Source: Candidatus Saccharimonadota bacterium (lineage in GTDB: Bacteria > Patescibacteriota > Saccharimonadia > Saccharimonadales > Saccharimonadaceae). From it: DNA of 32,000 nucleotides. How positions within the stretch are numbered: position 1 is the stretch's first letter; every line of letters starts with the position of its first letter. Shown in pieces: positions 4,570 through 20,417 of this stretch. The translations under genes were made by a program, and so were the position numbers. A model generated the notes under the pieces. It saw nothing but the letters and a program-made list of their open reading frames with translations. It did not search any database and was not told the DNA's origin. The DNA lies in assembly GCA_049296095.1 (NCBI GenBank), contig JBAQRV010000001.1, forward strand, positions 480,001 to 512,000. The letters run 5' to 3'.

Positions 4570-4901
4570 TCAGTAACTAATTGATAACTTAATCGCACAA
4601 GATCTTTAATCTCGTCGTCGTTCAGTTGGCCTGAACAAATAATAGTGTTCCAGTGTTTCTTGTTCAAATGGTAGCCGGCAACAACAGTCTCATAACGCTC
4701 ACGGAGTGTCTCAGCGAGCACTGGGTCACATTTCAGACTCACTCGAAGTGGCTTTGAGCCATCGGCAATCAAAGCAAACATCTTACCTTCCCCAGTCTCT
4801 TTGTGGCCAACCTTATAGACCGACGTTCCTTCACCAAAAGGAAAATCGAGCCACGTATTAGGAAAGCTGAGTATATATTCTTCAAGTTCTTTGTGGGTCA
4901 T
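4566..4901 (-). CDS. MmcQ/YjbR family DNA-binding protein
   Basis: 111 aa with the typical family pattern: FPFGEG..VYKV ... MFALI ... LKCDP ... GYHLNKKHWNTI. Confidence 0.8.
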   Translation of the reverse strand: MTHKELEEYILSFPNTWLDFPFGEGTSVYKVGHKETGEGKMFALIADGSKPLRVSLKCDPVLAETLRERYETVVAGYHLNKKHWNTIICSGQLNDDEIKDLVRLSYQLVTD

Positions 4902-4911
4902 TGTCCCTATT

Positions 4912-6132
4912 TTACAGACTCGAGTAGGGAGATTGCAACTGACTCATCGAAGTTGCCCAATTCAAACGGGTCAGAATACTCGACTGCTGCTCTGGAGTGG
5001 CCGGTTTGACGATCTTTCCGGAGTCGTTTGTCCCAACGACGCCGAATTGGTACGTAAACGGCAATTTAGCGAGCTTTTCACTCTCAACCTTGCTCAAACA
5101 ATCATCGTGGAAGGCTTTGCAGGTGTCACCCAAGGCGAGCCATTTTGTCAGTTCAGTTGAATCAACCTCATTCACGTTCATCACCACTCGTATGCCCGCC
5201 GAACGCACGACCTCGGCAGTATCTTGCTGATCGAAAATAAAGTTGCCCATCGAGTACACTATCAGGTGGCCTTTATAGACCTCGGTGGTTTGAATCCAGT
5301 GCGGATGATCGCCAATTACCATGTCAGCACCGTGATCAATCAGCGAGCGATAGGTTGTCGTCTTGATCTCGTCAGGAGCGGGTTTATACTCAACGCCCAT
5401 GTGTGGCATGGCGATGACGGGCATAACTCTGCTATATGCCTCCATCACCGCCAATGATTCTTGTGAGGGGATTTTAAATACCCCGTGATAGCCACACATC
5501 GCGACAGGCATAGATTCTTTTTTAGTCGAACCGTCATCATAAGTGACGGTCATGGGCATTGCAATCACATCACAGACATCATCTACTTCATCTGGGTCGT
5601 AATGTCCAAAATACTGAATACCATTTTCTTCTAAATGTCGTTTCGTTTCAGCAAAGCCCTCTACTTCCCTATTGTCCGTGTGGTTATTGGCGAGCGTAAA
5701 AGCAGTAAACCATTTGGCAGCTTCAGGAAGGTAGTCTGGTGAACAATTAAAAGAGAGGGTCAAATCTTCCTCGGCTGAAGTCTGTGAGAAGTTGGCAACC
5801 GTCGGACATTCCAACCCAGCAATCCAAGCATCGTAGGATTCGCGGTTAAACTCATTCAAGCGAGAAAACGGATAGGCGGTTTTGAGAGGACTCGCCATCG
5901 ACCAGTCATTAATATAACGACCCCAGAAAACATTTCCAAAGAACAACGTATTGGCAGATACGCTCACTGGTTGTGGAGTAGGCGCAGGCAGATCAACTGT
6001 CTGCTCGGGTGTTTGAGCCGTAGGGCTAAAGATAAGAAGTGCTGCAACCGTCCCCGCGGCAATCAATAAGATACTGCCAACAACCACCAACCATGATCGT
6101 AGTCGCCTCTTCCAACCCGACACTCGTTTCAT
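4912..6132 (-). CDS. CapA-family metallophosphatase-fold protein with N-terminal membrane anchor
   Basis: N-terminal TM (WLVVVGSILLIAAGTVAALLIF). CapA-like motifs LANNHTDN, MPHMGVEY, GDHPHWIQ, YSMGNFIFDQ. Confidence 0.8.
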   Translation of the reverse strand: MKRVSGWKRRLRSWLVVVGSILLIAAGTVAALLIFSPTAQTPEQTVDLPAPTPQPVSVSANTLFFGNVFWGRYINDWSMASPLKTAYPFSRLNEFNRESYDAWIAGLECPTVANFSQTSAEEDLTLSFNCSPDYLPEAAKWFTAFTLANNHTDNREVEGFAETKRHLEENGIQYFGHYDPDEVDDVCDVIAMPMTVTYDDGSTKKESMPVAMCGYHGVFKIPSQESLAVMEAYSRVMPVIAMPHMGVEYKPAPDEIKTTTYRSLIDHGADMVIGDHPHWIQTTEVYKGHLIVYSMGNFIFDQQDTAEVVRSAGIRVVMNVNEVDSTELTKWLALGDTCKAFHDDCLSKVESEKLAKLPFTYQFGVVGTNDSGKIVKPATPEQQSSILTRLNWATSMSQLQSPYSSL

Positions 6133-6138
6133 GAGCTT

Positions 6139-6147
6139 ATTGTAGCA
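6139..6147 (-). promoter_or_regulatory. extended -10 element (TGCTACAAT), leaderless-type promoter for the CapA-family gene
   Basis: The minus strand reads TGCTACAAT-AAGCTC-ATG (ATG at 6132). The element sits between the orn stop and the capA-like start. Confidence 0.5.
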
Positions 6148-6150
6148 CTA

Positions 6151-6723
6151 TTAAGAAGGCTTGATTTTACCGAGGTAATACTTGAGCTCGGTAATGCTAC
6201 CACGGATATCTTCGAGTGCCCTATGCGCCTCTGGCTTGGCAAACTTTTTCTTAAATTTATTCTCGAACACCACTTTCCAAGCAGTCACATCGAGCATGCG
6301 ATAGTTTAATCGTGCGTTCAAGCGGTGCCATTCGTTCTCAATAAATTTACGGTCCATGTGGATTGAGTTACCGCCAAGCAAGACAGGAAGATCTTTATCA
6401 AAATGCTTATCAACAAATTCGAGCAACTCATTTTCAATGGTTCGAGCCGATCGGCCGCTCTCTAGATTCTGTTTGATAAGCGCATCACGGACCTCAGGAA
6501 CCGATTCCCAAAAGCTCGCTGCTGGGCCTTTTTTCATTCGCTTTTCAACCAATCGTGGACCGACCAATACTGCCGCCTCGTACGTCGCAATCTCATTAAA
6601 TTCCCAATCGGTCACAATCGCGCCAATCTCTAAGATACGATCATTGATCGGATCAAGCCCTGTCATCTCTAGGTCAATCCACAAGATGCGCTCGACGCGT
6701 TTGTTTGTCAGTTTTCCAGACAT
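6151..6723 (-). CDS. orn: oligoribonuclease
   Basis: DEDDh exonuclease motifs WIDLEMTGLD, GNSIHMDRKFI and HRALEDIRGSI. 190 aa. SD AAGGAA upstream. Confidence 0.9.
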   Translation of the reverse strand: MSGKLTNKRVERILWIDLEMTGLDPINDRILEIGAIVTDWEFNEIATYEAAVLVGPRLVEKRMKKGPAASFWESVPEVRDALIKQNLESGRSARTIENELLEFVDKHFDKDLPVLLGGNSIHMDRKFIENEWHRLNARLNYRMLDVTAWKVVFENKFKKKFAKPEAHRALEDIRGSITELKYYLGKIKPS

Positions 6724-16048: not shown

Positions 16049-16196
16049 GTAATTCCCCTATGCTACGTTCTTATATTAGTAATTGAGTCTGTCATACACT
16101 TTAACCTCCCCGGAAACCCCTATTTTAGGGGCGCAAGAATAACATCGGTGTAGCAGCCGTCTGTTAGTCTTGCTAAATGTGTATTTTGATGTCAGT

Positions 16197-16345
16197 ACTA
16201 CATATGTAGTGCTTATGTAAGACTATATGCCCCCACATATGGTTTTTCAAGCGTTTTTATGTGTTTTTTTCACCACATGAGCGCTTATGCTTATTTAACA
16301 CCTTATAGTGTGGTGTTTGTTATTTACAACGCTATATGTGGTGTG
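16197..16345. promoter_or_regulatory. cluster of ATATGTGG-type operator repeats upstream of nrdA (candidate NrdR-box-like sites)
   Basis: Plus-strand copies: ACTACATATGTAGT (16197-16210, a perfect 14-bp palindrome), CCACATATGG (16233-16242), CACCACATGA (16271-16280), TTATAGTGTGGTG (16303-16315) and CTATATGTGGTGTG (16332-16345). Both orientations occur. Confidence 0.45.
16222..16250 (-). promoter_or_regulatory. sigma-70-type promoter for the nrd operon (TTGAAA-17-TATAGT)
   Basis: The minus strand reads TTGAAA-AACCATATGTGGGGGCA-TATAGT. One operator copy lies in the spacer and the 14-bp palindrome lies just downstream of the predicted start. This implies a leader of about 165 nt. Confidence 0.45.
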
Positions 16346-16398
16346 TTGAGTACTTAGCCGTTTTCTCTATTCGACAAATTAATTTCGAGCGAGCACTC

Positions 16399-16830
16399 TT
16401 AATCTTGTACGGCGTCACGCACTTGATCTATTGATATATTGCTTCTAAGTGTTGCGGGGTCACCATAGTGCCTTGAACGTTTTATCTTTCCATTTTCAAT
16501 TTGACACACTAAAACATAGGGCCAAACTCGTTTAGAATCCTTAGTTGGTTCGACTTCAGCAAGTTCAACGAATACAGTTTGCGTCCTTTCATTGGCAGCG
16601 ACATTCCAGACATGAAATTCACGGCCTTCAAGTGCATATGCATCCTCAAGACCAACCGAAATATCTCCTCCGGCGAAAACCGGGAAAACTTTGTCTTCAG
16701 AGATAATCATACCTCTTTGCTTAAAGTCATCAGTAATTAGACGCTTGCCCTTCTTTACATTATTAGTTCGCTCGGCTTCGAATGAGTCGGTAACAATTTT
16801 GATGAGGTCATCTTGCGAGTAGTAGTGCAT
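16399..16830 (-). CDS. NTF2-like / SnoaL-like fold protein (143 aa)
   Basis: Size and alpha+beta cone pattern (helical N-terminus, then strands FHVWNVAANERTQTVFVEL, WPYVLVCQIENGKI). ATG 16830 is chosen because TGGTATACT lies 6 nt upstream. Confidence 0.6.
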   Translation of the reverse strand: MHYYSQDDLIKIVTDSFEAERTNNVKKGKRLITDDFKQRGMIISEDKVFPVFAGGDISVGLEDAYALEGREFHVWNVAANERTQTVFVELAEVEPTKDSKRVWPYVLVCQIENGKIKRSRHYGDPATLRSNISIDQVRDAVQD

Positions 16831-16836
16831 GCCACT

Positions 16837-16845
16837 AGTATACCA
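16837..16845 (-). promoter_or_regulatory. extended -10 element (TGGTATACT), leaderless-type promoter for the NTF2-like gene
   Basis: The minus strand reads TGGTATACT-AGTGGC-ATG (ATG at 16830). Confidence 0.4.
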
Positions 16846-16928
16846 AATCCTACACACACTACTTGACAAGTATTATATAGGTCTGTTTAATAGTACTAAA
16901 CTAAGCCCTAGGTTAATAAGGACTCCGC

Positions 16929-17117
16929 ATGCGAGAACGAACAACTGATCAGATCATTCGACAAAGCGCCGACCCAGAAGCACTTCTTGATGCTCTAAAA
17001 GAGGCTGATGATACAGACCTCATCGACACCCTCAAGCCTGAAATACGACGAGAGGTAGAAGAATCTGTTCGCGTCCGTTCAATGGGAAGTCGTGGCCTCG
17101 GCGGCTTTTCTCTCTAA
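16929..17117 (+). CDS. small acidic protein (62 aa) with Gly-rich C-terminus
   Basis: ATG is preceded by TAAGGA with a 6-nt spacer. A possible TTGACA (16863-16868) lies upstream. Sequence: MRERTTDQIIRQSADPEALLDALKEADDTDLIDTLKPEIRREVEESVRVRSMGSRGLGGFSL. Native-looking codon usage. Confidence 0.45.
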   Translation: MRERTTDQIIRQSADPEALLDALKEADDTDLIDTLKPEIRREVEESVRVRSMGSRGLGGFSL

Positions 17118-17118
17118 T

Positions 17119-17919
17119 CTATTGATTATGTTCTGTGTAGGTATAGTATGATTCGTTTGCTTTCATGGCAAGGCGAGCTAAACTTGCCGTACGACCAGAA
17201 ACAAATTGATGAGCGTATACCCAAGCGACATATCCATCTGGGAATTGGTCGACCTCGAGGTGAGTTGATGGCGCGGACGCCACTATCACCTGTCTTAGGC
17301 CTCCGATCACAGGCGCCTGTTCAATGAGTAAAAGACGCCGACGAAGCTCAGCAATGTCCCACAAGCCTAATTTTTGTCCTTGTTCCTTTTCCCACACACT
17401 TGCAGCCCACGACTGGGTGGATTCAACGAAAGCTTTTTCAGCAGCCACCCCTTTGTCTTCGTGAAAGGATGCACCGAGTACTATATACGGGTACGTTTGG
17501 GCATTTTCCAAAATAGAAACAGCTGCATACCCATCGCGCATCACCGTTTCGACAAACCCAATTGCAAAATGATAATCAGATGGTACATCATATTTCTCAT
17601 GCATTGCTGCGATGTCCGCATCGGAAGCCTTCCCCAATATCGGGCGGTCAAACGCCCACCAAGCAGCTACAGATATTCGCTCGTTAGCCTCTCTTTCGGC
17701 ATTTTCGATGGCCGCATCTCTCTCGACATGCGCCGCCGATGAAACAAAGCCCGATTCTCGATCAACTGAGGCTTGAATCTCTAACGCTTCCATTAGAGTT
17801 TTGAGTCTTATTTGATCTTCATTGTCACCCGTAGCAGCGGGGCGAAAGGTATCACTCTCGGCAAGCTTCACTGTCTTTAGTGAAGGAAACGGTGTTTTAA
17901 TTTCGATAAATGTATTCAT
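17119..17919 (-). CDS. hypothetical protein (266 aa) with motif-level resemblance to the YcaO superfamily
   Basis: Long clean ORF of native composition. Motifs DAAIENAER (aa 68-76), FVETVMRD (122-129) and GASFHEDKGVAAEKAFVESTQ (149-169) occur in the order I recall for the YcaO ATP/Mg-binding motifs. The coding call is solid; the function is speculative. Confidence 0.7.
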   Translation of the reverse strand: MNTFIEIKTPFPSLKTVKLAESDTFRPAATGDNEDQIRLKTLMEALEIQASVDRESGFVSSAAHVERDAAIENAEREANERISVAAWWAFDRPILGKASDADIAAMHEKYDVPSDYHFAIGFVETVMRDGYAAVSILENAQTYPYIVLGASFHEDKGVAAEKAFVESTQSWAASVWEKEQGQKLGLWDIAELRRRLLLIEQAPVIGGLRQVIVASAPSTHLEVDQFPDGYVAWVYAHQFVSGRTASLARLAMKANESYYTYTEHNQ

Positions 17920-17928
17920 AGTGATGTG

Positions 17929-17965
17929 CCACCACGGGGGGTCTACATGCGACCCCCCGCGGTGG
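17929..17965 (-). terminator. GC-rich 13-bp hairpin between the high-GC gene and the 266-aa gene (no U-tract)
   Basis: The minus-strand RNA reads CCACCGCGGGGGG-UCGCAUGUAGA-CCCCCCGUGGUGG. The single non-Watson-Crick pair is G-U on the minus strand and A-C on the plus strand, which favours a role in the minus-strand transcript. The hairpin ends 9 nt before ATG 17919. Confidence 0.5.
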
Positions 17966-17981
17966 TGGTGCGGCTGTCTTG

Positions 17982-18479
17982 CTAGACGGCCACGGCGACG
18001 CGCGACTTGGCGAACGACGACTGCCAGGCCATGGTGGCCATGACGGCCTCCGTGGCGGCGACGAAGTTGTCCGTCAGCGCCGACTGCTCCCAGAGCTTGT
18101 CCTGGACGCTGCCGTCCTCGCCGAGGAGCTCGAGCTCCATGCGCGCCGTGCTGACCGACGTGGCCGCGGCGGCGAGGTTCTCGAGCTGGGCGCCGAAGTC
18201 GACGTCGGTGCCGCCGAGCTGCTCGTAGAGCGAGGCGACGGAGCCGATCTTGGACTTGGCGTCCTCGAAGTAGTCCTCGCCACGCTTCAGAAGCGCGATG
18301 GCGTCGTCGAGGCTGCCCTCAGCGAGAACCGCCATCTCGATCTTGGCGTGAGCACCGAAGTAGCACTCCGTGCCGGTGAACATGACCTGACAGAACTCCG
18401 CCAGGTCGGTGACGTACGCCTCACGGACGCCCGGCATCGGCCGATCAGTGAGAGGCGGGGGGCAGTTCTTTCCACCCAT
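17982..18479 (-). CDS. hypothetical protein (165 aa) encoded by a high-GC cassette, probably of foreign origin
   Basis: ATG 18479 has GGAGG 8 nt upstream. By my full hand translation, 152 of 165 codons end in G or C. TAG stop. Sequence MGGKNCPPPLTDRPMPGVREAYVTDLAEFCQVMFTGTECYFGAHAKIEMAVLAEG... looks mostly helical. No family recognised. Confidence 0.75.
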   Translation of the reverse strand: MGGKNCPPPLTDRPMPGVREAYVTDLAEFCQVMFTGTECYFGAHAKIEMAVLAEGSLDDAIALLKRGEDYFEDAKSKIGSVASLYEQLGGTDVDFGAQLENLAAAATSVSTARMELELLGEDGSVQDKLWEQSALTDNFVAATEAVMATMAWQSSFAKSRVAVAV

Positions 18480-18511
18480 GATGGTGACCTCCAAAGGTCT
18501 CGCGTGTTTTT

Positions 18512-18538
18512 TTAACAGGACGAAGTCCGCCCTGTTAA
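18512..18538. other. imperfect hairpin at the upstream edge of the high-GC cassette
   Basis: The plus strand reads TTAACAGGAC-GAAGT-CCGCCCTGTTAA, preceded by T7. It lies between the candidate promoter and the SD of the 165-aa gene. On the minus strand it is followed by A7, so it is not a canonical terminator for the ABC-F gene. Confidence 0.35.
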
Positions 18539-18543
18539 GTTTT

Positions 18544-18571
18544 ATAGTAATATATATGGGTGTTTTGTCAA
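18544..18571 (-). promoter_or_regulatory. candidate promoter (TTGACA-16-TACTAT) for the high-GC gene
   Basis: The minus strand has TTGACA at 18571-18566, in AT-rich native-looking sequence just after the ABC-F stop. TACTAT follows with a 16-nt spacer, or TATAAA with a 19-nt spacer. Confidence 0.35.
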
Positions 18572-18576
18572 TGATA

Positions 18577-20190
18577 TTATATGTTGATCTCGTGCGTAAT
18601 ACCCAGCGCTTCTAAGAACTCGCGATCATGAGATACCACCACAACTCCCCCCTCGTATGAAGCAATCGCACTCTCAAGAGCCTCAACGGTCGCAAGATCG
18701 AGATTATTTGTCGGTTCGTCGAGTAGCAAAAGGTTCGCCTTGTTTGCGGCAATGGAAGCCAACAACACCTTTGCTCGTTCACCACCACTAAGGTCCCGAC
18801 CTCTAGTAGTAGAAATAATGTCTTTCTTTAGGTTAAAACGTATCAATAGATTAATAGCTTCATGAACCTCGAGATGAGGTGCCATGTGCTTGATATTATC
18901 AAAGGCCGTACCATCCATTAATGGGAGGCTTTGTTCTTGGTCGATATAGATCGGATGAGCTTCCTTATTAATGGCGATTCCTCCTAATATCTCTCCGGCG
19001 CTCTTGCCAACAATCGCCCGGAGCAATGAAGACTTCCCTATACCATTCGGTCCGTTGAGTGCATACCGCTCACCCGATCGAATACTTAGCGATAGAGGGC
19101 CAGCTGTGAAGCCGTCTAGATACGTCACTGTAAGTTCATTGACGGTGAGTAGGTTTAGCTTCTTTGCATCAGCTTCTTTAAACAAGAATTTGAGTGAAAC
19201 TTCTTCCTCGGGGCGTTCTGGCTCCTCAAGTTGTCCCGCGCGACTCTCGATACTCTGCGCAGCACGAGCAAGGCCGCTCGCCGCCTTTTCTGCCCGAAAG
19301 TTCGCTGTTGACTTGTCATTATCTGGTGCTTTTCGCCTACCCGAAGAGGCTCCGTTGGCACGAATGCTGGCGTCACGAGCAACTTTCTTTAAGCGCTTCT
19401 TTTCAGTCTCGTATTGATCATATCGTTTTACGACCGCAGCGCGATCCGCCTGACGGCTCTCCATATATTCGTCGTAGCCTAGCCCATACTGCTCAACACC
19501 CCTATCTTCACCCAGTAACTCGACAATGCGGTTAGTAGCGTTGCGCAGGAAACGACGATCGTGAGAAACCATCACAAATGCGCCCTTAGCTGTATCGATG
19601 AACCCTTCGAGAGCCTCAATACCCTTGCTGTCTAGATTATTCGTCGGTTCATCGAGCAAGACAACATCTTGTTGCGAGGCGAAGATTCCCGCTAGGGCAA
19701 TTCGAGTTCGCTGACCTCCCGAGAAGTGCTTGAGAGGACTAGTAACATCAATACCCTCCATATCAGCCGCTGCGAGAGCCTTCTCTATTTTGCTTTCAAA
19801 TCCTGGCACATCGTACTTCTCGTATTTTTCGAGGGCGTCAGCATAAAAGGCGAGCACTGTATCGCTCGTACTGTCTTGGAGCATTCGACAAGCCTCGTCA
19901 AAATCTTCACGGGCCTGTTGGACCCCAGTCACTGATTCAAGGAAATCGTAGACAGGTTTGTCGAGCCAGCCCCCAAGATCTTGAGGCATAAGTCCCACTT
20001 CGGTATCATTCCCGACTATCTCTCCCTGAGTAGGCTCAAGATCACCTGAAAGCAAATGGAGCAAGGTTGTCTTTCCGACGCCGTTTTTGCCTACCAACCC
20101 TAGCCGATCGCCCTTGTTAATGGCAAAAGAAACGTTACGAAAGACCTCATGGCCCGCAGTTTCATATCCAATATTTTTTACGCTCAACAT
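18577..20190 (-). CDS. ABC-F family ATPase (translation-associated, no membrane domain)
   Basis: Two ABC cassettes with Walker A GKNGVGKTT and GPNGIGKSS and signatures LSGGQRTR and LSGGERAK. A charged Arg/Lys/Glu-rich inter-domain linker. No TM segments. Confidence 0.9.
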   Translation of the reverse strand: MLSVKNIGYETAGHEVFRNVSFAINKGDRLGLVGKNGVGKTTLLHLLSGDLEPTQGEIVGNDTEVGLMPQDLGGWLDKPVYDFLESVTGVQQAREDFDEACRMLQDSTSDTVLAFYADALEKYEKYDVPGFESKIEKALAAADMEGIDVTSPLKHFSGGQRTRIALAGIFASQQDVVLLDEPTNNLDSKGIEALEGFIDTAKGAFVMVSHDRRFLRNATNRIVELLGEDRGVEQYGLGYDEYMESRQADRAAVVKRYDQYETEKKRLKKVARDASIRANGASSGRRKAPDNDKSTANFRAEKAASGLARAAQSIESRAGQLEEPERPEEEVSLKFLFKEADAKKLNLLTVNELTVTYLDGFTAGPLSLSIRSGERYALNGPNGIGKSSLLRAIVGKSAGEILGGIAINKEAHPIYIDQEQSLPLMDGTAFDNIKHMAPHLEVHEAINLLIRFNLKKDIISTTRGRDLSGGERAKVLLASIAANKANLLLLDEPTNNLDLATVEALESAIASYEGGVVVVSHDREFLEALGITHEINI

Positions 20191-20327: not shown

Positions 20328-20417
20328 TGGCGGAGAGAACGAGATTCGAACTCGTGGTAACATTGCTGCCACACACGCTTTCCAAGCGTGCGCCTTCAAC
20401 CACTCGGCCACCTCTCC
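20328..20417 (-). tRNA. tRNA-Ser (anticodon GGA), CCA encoded
   Basis: The minus strand reads GGAGAGGTGGCCGAGTGGTTGAAGGCGCACGCTTGGAAAGCGTGTGTGGCAGCAATGTTACCACGAGTTCGAATCTCGTTCTCTCCGCCA. It has a 7-bp acceptor stem, the anticodon stem CACGC/GCGTG with loop TTGGAAA, a long variable arm, and the T-loop TTCGAAT. Confidence 0.93.

Follow-up and report, generated by a model that had tools for sequence, protein, structure and literature searches.

Positions 16399-18571 of a 32,000-nucleotide (nt) stretch of a Candidatus Saccharimonadota genome (GCA_049296095.1, contig JBAQRV010000001.1, positions 480,001 to 512,000; the whole stretch is hereafter called the window) contain the core of a previously undescribed three-gene module, which is conserved across Saccharibacteria. 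The module is made up of the genes for an ABC-F ATPase, a small acidic protein of 165 amino acids (aa) encoded by a GC-rich gene, and a minimal YcaO-like enzyme of 266 aa. The original prediction, which was made from the letters of this stretch, described the interval as an accessory islet of four genes with one foreign member, set in housekeeping surroundings. The four open reading frames (ORFs), the 62-base-pair (bp) spacer, the candidate promoter and the anomaly in GC content that it reported were all recovered at the positions claimed, and the interval is indeed a site of non-housekeeping genes. However, two of the four genes, which code for a SnoaL-like protein and a 62-aa protein, are independent neighbours, and the third member of the module lies just outside the interval. 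All three module genes are on the minus strand of the window, with the ABC-F gene at 18577-20190 (537 aa), the small gene at 17982-18479 and the YcaO-like gene at 17119-17919. The window itself belongs to a metagenome-assembled genome of Candidatus Microsaccharimonas (Saccharibacteria). Searches of the full-text literature recovered no paper linking YcaO with either Saccharibacteria or ABC-F proteins, and a literature search on codon usage in Saccharibacteria gave nothing of relevance.

Conservation of the three-gene module

About 40 loci were collected through scans of species-representative genomes, scans of metagenomes and look-ups of exact proteins. The sources of the trio-bearing loci extend from soil Microsaccharimonas to human oral TM7 HOT-348, with a complete 0.7-Mb chromosome among them. 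The small gene was found wherever the YcaO gene is, and always immediately upstream of it; the original view of these two as a linked, co-oriented pair with its own promoter is thus borne out. Loci with upstream DNA read ABC-F, small gene, YcaO on one strand, the exceptions being the L008 lineage and two divergent lineages. In one of the latter (L049, 158-1874) the small gene and YcaO are followed by ABC-F on the same strand, and in the other (L050, 462-3553) by ABC-F on the opposite strand.

The trio has also undergone decay or deletion as a block in three lineages. In L008, L009 and L017 only some 20 C-terminal aa of the ABC-F survive as a remnant, while the YcaO gene remains intact. Codon 126 of the small gene of these loci (2263-2760 in L008) is an in-frame TAG, in contrast to CAG in relatives; it is seen in two independent assemblies, and homologous sequence runs on past it. 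It represents either decay of the module or read-through. In L011 (Ca. Microsaccharimonas sossegonensis, 4570-6597) a 97-aa N-terminal remnant of ABC-F directly precedes the SnoaL-like gene, indicating that the small and YcaO genes have been deleted, and in L015 and L016 a 28-aa N-terminal remnant of ABC-F occupies the same position. The persistence of adjacency through rearrangement, with three gene orders overall, together with this joint decay, identifies ABC-F, the small protein and YcaO as the conserved unit. The ABC-F gene, which had been taken for housekeeping context, is therefore a third conserved member that is adjacent in all three gene orders and lost with the pair.

The ABC-F protein reaches the cut-off of the NCBIfam model NF000355, 'ribosomal protection-like ABC-F', by a narrow margin (384.2 bits against 380), and is far below the cut-offs of the named subfamilies, namely Uup, EttA, Vga, Msr, Lsa and the producer type. 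Its next-best match is the antibiotic-producer TlrC/CarA/OleB/SrmB type, under the cut-off of that model.

There is an rve integrase gene next to ABC-F in L050. L010 (8244-12831) has, about 3 kb downstream of YcaO, genes for a resolvase and for a transposase of the Tn3 family, and upstream of ABC-F a Fic-domain gene, and L011 has, about 150 nt downstream, a gene with an Mtd_N domain, which is typical of the targets of diversity-generating retroelements.

A minimal standalone YcaO

The 266-aa protein of the window, which is encoded identically on GCA_049286885.1 and several related assemblies, matches the Pfam YcaO model (PF02624) below its cut-off (E = 0.013; 15.3 bits against 25.7). The same model is matched by seven of eight close relatives, with a best E-value of 3.9e-10. 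An AlphaFold model of the protein (predicted local distance difference test, pLDDT, 87.4; predicted template modelling score, pTM, 0.89) retrieved only YcaO structures among its top 20 PDB matches in a Foldseek search, the best being McbD (8.5e-08), M. kandleri YcaO (TM-score 0.67-0.68 on the query) and E. coli YcaO. Likewise, a profile of the family matches MusD with an E-value of 6.5e-5, and TruD, LynD and MJ1094 weakly. The YcaO label thus holds, at the level of both the family and the fold, and the protein is a true but minimal YcaO.

In a full scan of 1.84 billion representative proteins the family comprised about 42 clusters. Nearly all of its full-length members have 250-290 aa, after which there is a sharp drop in score to the canonical YcaOs of 330-420 aa. 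Across 33 diverse sequences of the family, E44, E47, E77, E80 and E166 are invariant, as are W87 and W88; R81 and Q169 are nearly so, and the extreme C-terminus is nearly invariant in the form (V/I/T)-F-T-x-H-N-x. A stretch of the form EAiERxSxAAWW, which includes an ExxER signature, aligns with the equivalent motif in MusD, TruD, LynD and MJ1094. In McbD, Mg2+ is coordinated by such glutamates, and the C-terminus takes part in catalysis (PMC6395948). By analogy with this enzyme and with earlier work on E. coli YcaO, rather than from structural superposition, the invariant glutamates, which make up an ExxE, an ExxER and a later E, are predicted to bind Mg2+ and ATP.

The NCBIfam model for the SagD type (TIGR03604) scored only 14.2 bits on the 266-aa protein, against a cut-off of 219. 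Genes for E1-like, ThiF-like or dehydrogenase proteins were found at none of the loci examined, and no TfuA domain was detected among the neighbours at these loci. Neither the minimal YcaO subfamily nor the small protein is represented by a model in any library searched.

The small protein and its N-terminal motif

The small protein had no relative in Pfam, NCBIfam, PHROGs, PADLOC or searches against PDB profiles. Its confident AlphaFold model (pLDDT 87.1) consists of four long helices and one short one, packed as a four-helix bundle. In a Foldseek search this model drew in only generic helical bundles, with E-values above 0.1, and no fold resembling a RiPP recognition element (RRE; RiPPs being peptides that the ribosome makes and that are modified after translation) or any other recognisable partner fold was seen in it. 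The N-terminal tail is predicted to be disordered: residues 1-8 are modelled with a pLDDT below 50 and the first helix begins at residue 16. In this N-terminal segment the sequence M-G-G-x-N-C, at residues 1-6, is invariant in 18 diverse small proteins, which are 28-40% identical between clades, and is followed by Pro- or Gly-rich linkers. Cys6 of this motif is the only conserved cysteine of the protein. The protein is acidic, with an isoelectric point of 4.3 in the window and of 4.1-5.8 across lineages.

The minus-strand sense frame is the only one that is open in all lineages of the small gene. The ATG at 18479 is favoured as its start by conservation and by a GGAGG Shine-Dalgarno sequence 8 nt upstream (18488-18492, minus strand). 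Public annotation over 17982-18515 differs: the NCBI start is at Met15, giving a 151-aa product that loses the invariant MGGxNC, and one Logan assembly calls a 178-aa ORF on the antisense strand. The latter was rejected as a real gene, with 4-18 stops in its frame in L010, L019, L025 and L028. These include all three lineages with low third-position GC, and the antisense frame, being open only where third-position GC is high, is an artefact of that composition. Two further ideas, that the small gene belongs to a diversity-generating retroelement as its template or variable repeat and that it is repeated elsewhere, were discarded, as no second copy exists in the window.

Gene-specific GC enrichment and flanking RNA hairpins

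The small gene of the window has a GC content of 0.67 and a GC content at third codon positions (GC3) of 0.92, against a GC3 of 0.35-0.56 in the other 27 genes of the window. All 14 of its Glu codons are GAG, all seven Lys codons AAG and all seven Phe codons TTC, and codons ending in A make up 1% of the total; the longest run of A/T in its coding region is 3 nt, compared with 9 nt in the YcaO gene. This excess recurs in most lineages. Set against the neighbouring genes of the same locus, GC3 of the small gene is 0.92 versus 0.41-0.47 in the window, 0.86 versus 0.34-0.36 in L006, 0.80 versus 0.44 in L008, 0.70 versus 0.30-0.35 in L019, 0.74-0.78 versus about 0.4 in the oral TM7 loci, 0.74 versus 0.32-0.33 in L050, 0.59 versus 0.22-0.30 in L049 and 0.39 versus 0.25 in L028. 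Versions of ordinary GC occupy the same position in L010 (0.41 versus 0.36-0.38) and in L025 and L026 (0.27 versus 0.24-0.29). Among 197 ORFs from 19 loci, seven of the eight largest GC3 excesses belong to the small gene. A general translational selection for GC-ending codons was rejected on this ground, and because the ribosomal protein genes of L015 are not enriched.

The original prediction had read this composition as a sign of foreign origin. However, the gene is constant in its position upstream of YcaO, occurs in ordinary-GC versions and diverges in step with its neighbours; across ten lineages, identities correlate with a rho of 0.80 between the small protein and YcaO and of 0.70 between the small protein and ABC-F, compared with 0.67 for the remaining pair of the trio. 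No homologue of the small protein was found outside Saccharibacteria-type contigs among 5.8 billion proteins, and neither a tblastn search of plasmids with the protein nor a blastn search of phages with the GC-rich tract gave a match. Thus, the high-GC gene is vertically co-inherited and is not foreign DNA. Between distant lineages, the proportion of synonymous differences (pS) of the small gene plateaus at 0.32-0.59, whereas that of its neighbours is saturated at about 0.8; between close oral strains, pS of the small gene equals that of its neighbours. This short-term divergence led us to reject the idea that a conserved RNA sequence keeps the synonymous sites from changing. Taken together, the long-term plateau and the neighbour-like short-term divergence point to a maintained compositional equilibrium, rather than to recent import or a frozen sequence. 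This equilibrium is specific to the gene and has been held over deep divergence, probably through selection on the transcript. The candidate causes of the excess are RNA stability, biased gene conversion and codon usage matched to a host.

The GC-rich tract (about 17925-18480) runs from the leader through a hairpin in the intergenic spacer, and its flanks are AT-rich. A sigma-70-like promoter, TTGACA-16-TACTAT (18544-18571, minus strand), was identified by a consensus scan as that of the small gene. Since the region has 5 promoter-like sites against 2.6 +/- 2.0 in shuffled sequences, the site alone is weak evidence. An equivalent TTGACA/TAnnAT site is present at the same place in L006, L008, L019 and the oral TM7 loci. 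The 75-nt leader of the window folds at -21.6 kcal/mol (z-score, z, -4.0) and contains a 5'-proximal hairpin, AACAGGGCGGA-CTTCG-TCCTGTT (18514-18536, minus strand), which was recognised by RNA folding and by its recurrence in relatives: a hairpin of different sequence lies at the same position in L006, L008, L019, the oral loci and L028. The Shine-Dalgarno sequence is presented by a small hairpin downstream of it.

A second hairpin lies directly 3' of the stop codon of the small gene, in the 62-bp spacer (17920-17981) that separates this gene from the co-oriented YcaO gene. In the window (17929-17965, minus strand) it has a perfect, GC-rich 15-bp stem with a folding energy of -35.7 kcal/mol (z -5.5). 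Stems of 15-17 bp (-31 to -40 kcal/mol; z, -5 to -10) are found at this place in all lineages whose GC3 is raised. From clade to clade their sequences show no relationship, and compensatory changes were seen in 4 of 16 pairs within the oral clade. A U-tract follows none of these hairpins. The spacer of L010 is only 12 nt long and the hairpin of L025 and L026 is weak, these being the same lineages that have no GC3 excess. The spacer hairpin is probably a 3' stabiliser of the messenger RNA (mRNA), or a partial terminator (attenuator) ahead of the YcaO gene.

Proposed mechanism and alternative explanations

Modification of a protein or peptide, which had been among the roles originally proposed, is still the most reasonable reading of the module. 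We favour, at a little under even odds (roughly 0.45), an explanation in which the small protein is an abundant substrate, whose N-terminal tail is modified in an ATP-dependent manner by the weakly expressed YcaO. The promoter of the small gene itself, the leader hairpin, the strong Shine-Dalgarno sequence, the A/T-poor synonymous sites and the 3' hairpin would together yield an abundant, long-lived and nuclease-resistant mRNA. The YcaO would be made in much smaller amounts, by read-through past the spacer hairpin; its start codon lies 10-25 nt past this hairpin with no clear free Shine-Dalgarno sequence, which makes low expression probable. It is this substrate-like ratio of expression, combined with the invariant flexible N-terminal tail, that suggests the small protein as the substrate of the YcaO. 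The enzyme would then activate a backbone amide in the Gly-Gly-x-Asn-Cys tail at the expense of ATP, and a thiazoline at Asn5-Cys6 might result, or else an N-terminal amidine of the kind seen in bottromycin.

Several observations weigh against this explanation. The enzyme is about 100 residues shorter than the YcaOs of solved structure and does not have the C-terminal Pro-rich motif of azoline formers, so that YcaO activity is not assured. The pair is not accompanied by genes for a protease, a dehydrogenase, TfuA or E1-like and ThiF-like proteins; any product would thus stay bound to the protein. L010, L025 and L026 carry the pair without the GC3 excess or a strong hairpin, and these features are hence not essential to its function. 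The high synteny of Saccharibacteria genomes weakens simple arguments from adjacency, an objection that is countered, as far as the linkage of the trio is concerned, by the rearranged and co-lost cases. Finally, a folded protein of 165 aa, with many conserved residues in its core and on its surface, is unlike a RiPP precursor and could be a partner of the enzyme instead.

This last point leads to the most serious alternative, which we nevertheless consider unlikely, namely that the four-helix protein serves the YcaO as an adaptor or sulfur carrier, with Cys6 acting as a persulfide or thiol relay on a flexible arm, and that the real substrate lies elsewhere, for example in a ribosomal protein, a translation factor or the ABC-F itself. 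Known YcaOs often need an E1-like, ThiF-like or TfuA partner (PMC7136475), and none is present here; the good conservation of the folded body of the small protein would agree with such a role, and the link to an ABC-F translation ATPase with a target related to the ribosome. However, a partner is normally needed in enzyme-like amounts, whereas the design of the promoter, the hairpins and the GC enrichment points to a large excess of the small protein, which moreover displays neither an RRE-like nor any other recognisable partner fold.

The favoured explanation also takes the GC enrichment to be a property of the transcript. It is distinctly less probable that its cause lies outside RNA, in a local recombination hot spot with GC-biased gene conversion or in codon usage matched to high-GC actinobacterial hosts, the latter implying a use of the gene, or of its message, inside the host. 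The known hosts of cultivated Saccharibacteria are indeed high-GC Actinobacteria, and a short-term synonymous divergence equal to that of the neighbours, combined with a low long-term plateau, is the signature of a compositional bias. As against this, the GC-rich tract coincides with the transcript, from leader to 3' hairpin, and the enrichment always co-occurs with the RNA hairpins. The small gene shows no excess strain diversity or mosaicism among oral strains, and no mechanism is known that moves a gene or message into the host.

The resemblance of the ABC-F to ribosomal protection proteins, and in second place to the producer type below its cut-off, raises the possibility that the product of the pair is a modified N-terminal peptide or protein directed against the ribosomes of the host or of competitors, with the ABC-F protecting the ribosomes of the producer. 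The ABC-F can be dispensed with and disappears along with the pair, its adjacency survives rearrangements, and several peptides made by YcaOs inhibit translation, including bottromycin with its N-terminal core (PMC7136475). We regard this as improbable, however: a protease, an exporter and a signal sequence are all lacking, the candidate core has only 5-6 residues and a single cysteine, and the ABC-F barely reaches the cut-off of its family and also resembles the housekeeping Uup and EttA. Furthermore, the pair is inherited vertically like a core gene and is not patchy like biosynthetic clusters.

A role for the ABC-F as a dedicated helper of the small gene is likewise improbable. Most small proteins have a PPP, PPPP or poly-Gly run at residues 7-11, and the ABC-F could relieve stalling at the resulting Cys-Pro-Pro-Pro or Cys-Gly-Gly-Gly-Gly-Gly start, directly after codon 6, in the way that stalls at polyproline and other sequences that are hard to translate are resolved by YfmR, Uup and YbiT (PMC10895253, PMC11381351, PMC11162784). 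Such relief of stalling would explain why the two genes travel together. Yet L010 (CKLPKG) and L025 and L026 (CQTPPS, CNTPPS) have no such runs and keep the trio, and it is unusual for a general translation factor to be clustered with just one client gene.

Comparison with known YcaO and ABC-F systems

In layout, the module most resembles the bottromycin system, in which an N-terminal core is followed by a C-terminal follower peptide, the YcaOs act without a partner and the ribosome is the target (PMC7136475, PMC5103208). Like BotC and BotCD acting on BotA/BtmD, the YcaO described here has no E1-like, ThiF-like or TfuA partner. The extreme N-terminus carries the candidate site, which comes right after Met-Gly and ends in X-Cys, and the rest of the polypeptide lies C-terminal of this site in the manner of a follower, the resemblance being in layout only. 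The ribosomal target of bottromycin also has a counterpart of sorts in the linked, ribosome-associated ABC-F. On the other hand, there is one YcaO of about 266 aa here, as opposed to two longer enzymes with YcaO domains, and the 'follower' is a conserved, folded four-helix bundle of 150 residues rather than a short peptide. No Met-aminopeptidase, follower hydrolase, methyltransferases, P450 or exporter is encoded in the flanks examined, and vertical inheritance in an episymbiont of reduced genome contrasts with a Streptomyces gene cluster. We hold it decidedly improbable that the YcaO cyclises the N-terminal Gly-Gly-x-Asn-Cys of its carrier into a ribosome-directed warhead against which the ABC-F protects, with a host-like codon usage that would reflect use against or within the high-GC host.

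The methanogen YcaO, which thioamidates McrA with or without TfuA, and E. coli YcaO offer a different parallel. The M. kandleri and E. coli enzymes are among the closest structures, and the targets or associated molecules of these YcaOs are full-size proteins instead of short peptides; for E. coli YcaO, a link to the modification of ribosomal protein S12 has been drawn. They differ from the enzyme studied here, which is about 100 to 300 residues shorter and is associated with a dedicated, co-inherited small protein as partner or substrate and with an ABC-F.

A further likeness concerns gene arrangement. In RiPP operons such as mccA-mccB and nisA-nisB, a short, highly expressed first gene and a strong intergenic hairpin precede the gene for the modifying enzyme, and the substrate exceeds the enzyme. 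The present module shares the sequence of small gene, strong hairpin and YcaO gene; it departs from those operons in having a hairpin without a U-tract, a folded product of 165 aa and GC-enriched synonymous sites throughout the coding region. Compared with azoline-forming systems of the thiazole/oxazole-modified microcin (TOMM) class, of SagD type, it has no partner or dehydrogenase and no Pro-rich C-terminus, and the candidate substrate possesses one conserved Cys in place of a core rich in Cys, Ser and Thr. Membership in the bottromycin pathway, the azoline-forming TOMMs or the TfuA type thus fails in each case on accessory genes and motifs. As for the ABC-F, it shares two ABC domains, an inter-domain linker and the attained NF000355 cut-off with the antibiotic-resistance (ARE, ribosomal protection) and housekeeping types, from which it is set apart by its borderline score and by a clustering with a YcaO pair for which the full-text searches yielded no report.

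Neighbouring genes in the window

The SnoaL-like gene (16399-16830, minus strand) codes for 143 aa from its ATG and has an alternative TTG start at 16869. Its assignment to the SnoaL/NTF2-like group is weak for the window protein itself, which matches Pfam SnoaL_2 (PF12680) below the cut-off (E = 0.02; 16 bits against 27), but stands at the level of the family, where 12 of 17 relatives match this model, with a best E-value of 9.2e-06. A PDB profile search with the family returned nothing significant. The family comprises 39 clusters, compared with 8 for the YcaO, and is found in unrelated contexts without the pair (L011, L013 and L015); in L008 the gene lies 26 nt after the YcaO gene. It is an independent syntenic neighbour and not a member of the module.

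The 62-aa ORF (16929-17117, plus strand) is present only in the window and in the L006/L027 lineage. It is the sole frame open in both the window and L006, and between them the proportion of nonsynonymous differences (pN) is 0.167 against a pS of 0.670. It had no match in Pfam, NCBIfam or PADLOC, and PHROGs gave only weak matches for the four proteins of the interval, with E-values of at least 0.017. Going by this pattern of substitution in the DNA, it is a real gene, a lineage-specific neighbour of the YcaO gene that stands outside the module. It diverges from the SnoaL-like gene across a shared 98-bp region (16831-16928) and converges with the YcaO gene, their stop codons lying 1 nt apart, so that antisense read-through between the two is possible.

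Comparison of the loci for genes that travel together, as originally proposed, therefore links the small gene with YcaO, and both with ABC-F, and leaves the SnoaL-like and 62-aa genes independent. With regard to defence, PADLOC gave no match for any of the four proteins. A four-gene accessory islet with a member recently acquired from a high-GC donor, to which the extreme GC3, the codon usage typical of high-GC organisms and the adjacency of the four genes in the window and L006 had lent some appeal, is very improbable, given that the small gene is directly upstream of YcaO in every lineage, in some of them at ordinary GC, and tracks its neighbours in divergence, that its GC3 stays high where the synonymous sites of these neighbours are saturated and a transferred gene would have drifted to the composition of its host, that no donor homologue was found among the proteins, plasmids and phages searched, that the SnoaL-like and 62-aa genes differ in distribution, and that the oppositely oriented 62-aa gene sits between the SnoaL-like gene and the pair in the window.

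An Rfam scan of the window detected only tRNA. A tRNA-Ser(GGA) gene (20328-20417, minus strand) lies between the ABC-F gene and a pair of genes for a MacB/FtsX-type ABC transporter. Upstream of nrdA, there is a 350-nt AT-rich untranslated stretch (16049-16398; GC about 0.39-0.40) with a promoter-like site at 16250-16222 and no Rfam match; this may be a control region of the NrdR type.

General considerations

YcaO enzymes that function outside antibiotic clusters are poorly understood, and the module ties a minimal form of about 266 aa to a single candidate substrate or partner and to a translation ATPase. As the organisms that carry it have only a few hundred genes, and include human oral TM7 lineages with some cultivable relatives, a clean test of a minimal YcaO is feasible. 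The maintenance of one transcript at a GC3 of 0.7-0.9 amid neighbours at 0.3-0.5, over deep divergence and with flanking hairpins, is a natural case for the study of selection on synonymous sites and of mRNA stability. It also illustrates that composition alone can mislabel a vertically inherited gene as foreign, and that the public annotation of the small gene is unreliable. Were the N-terminal tail indeed to be converted into a warhead, it would rank as the first modified peptide or protein aimed at translation to come from an ultra-small episymbiont, and would provide a molecular handle on its control of the host.

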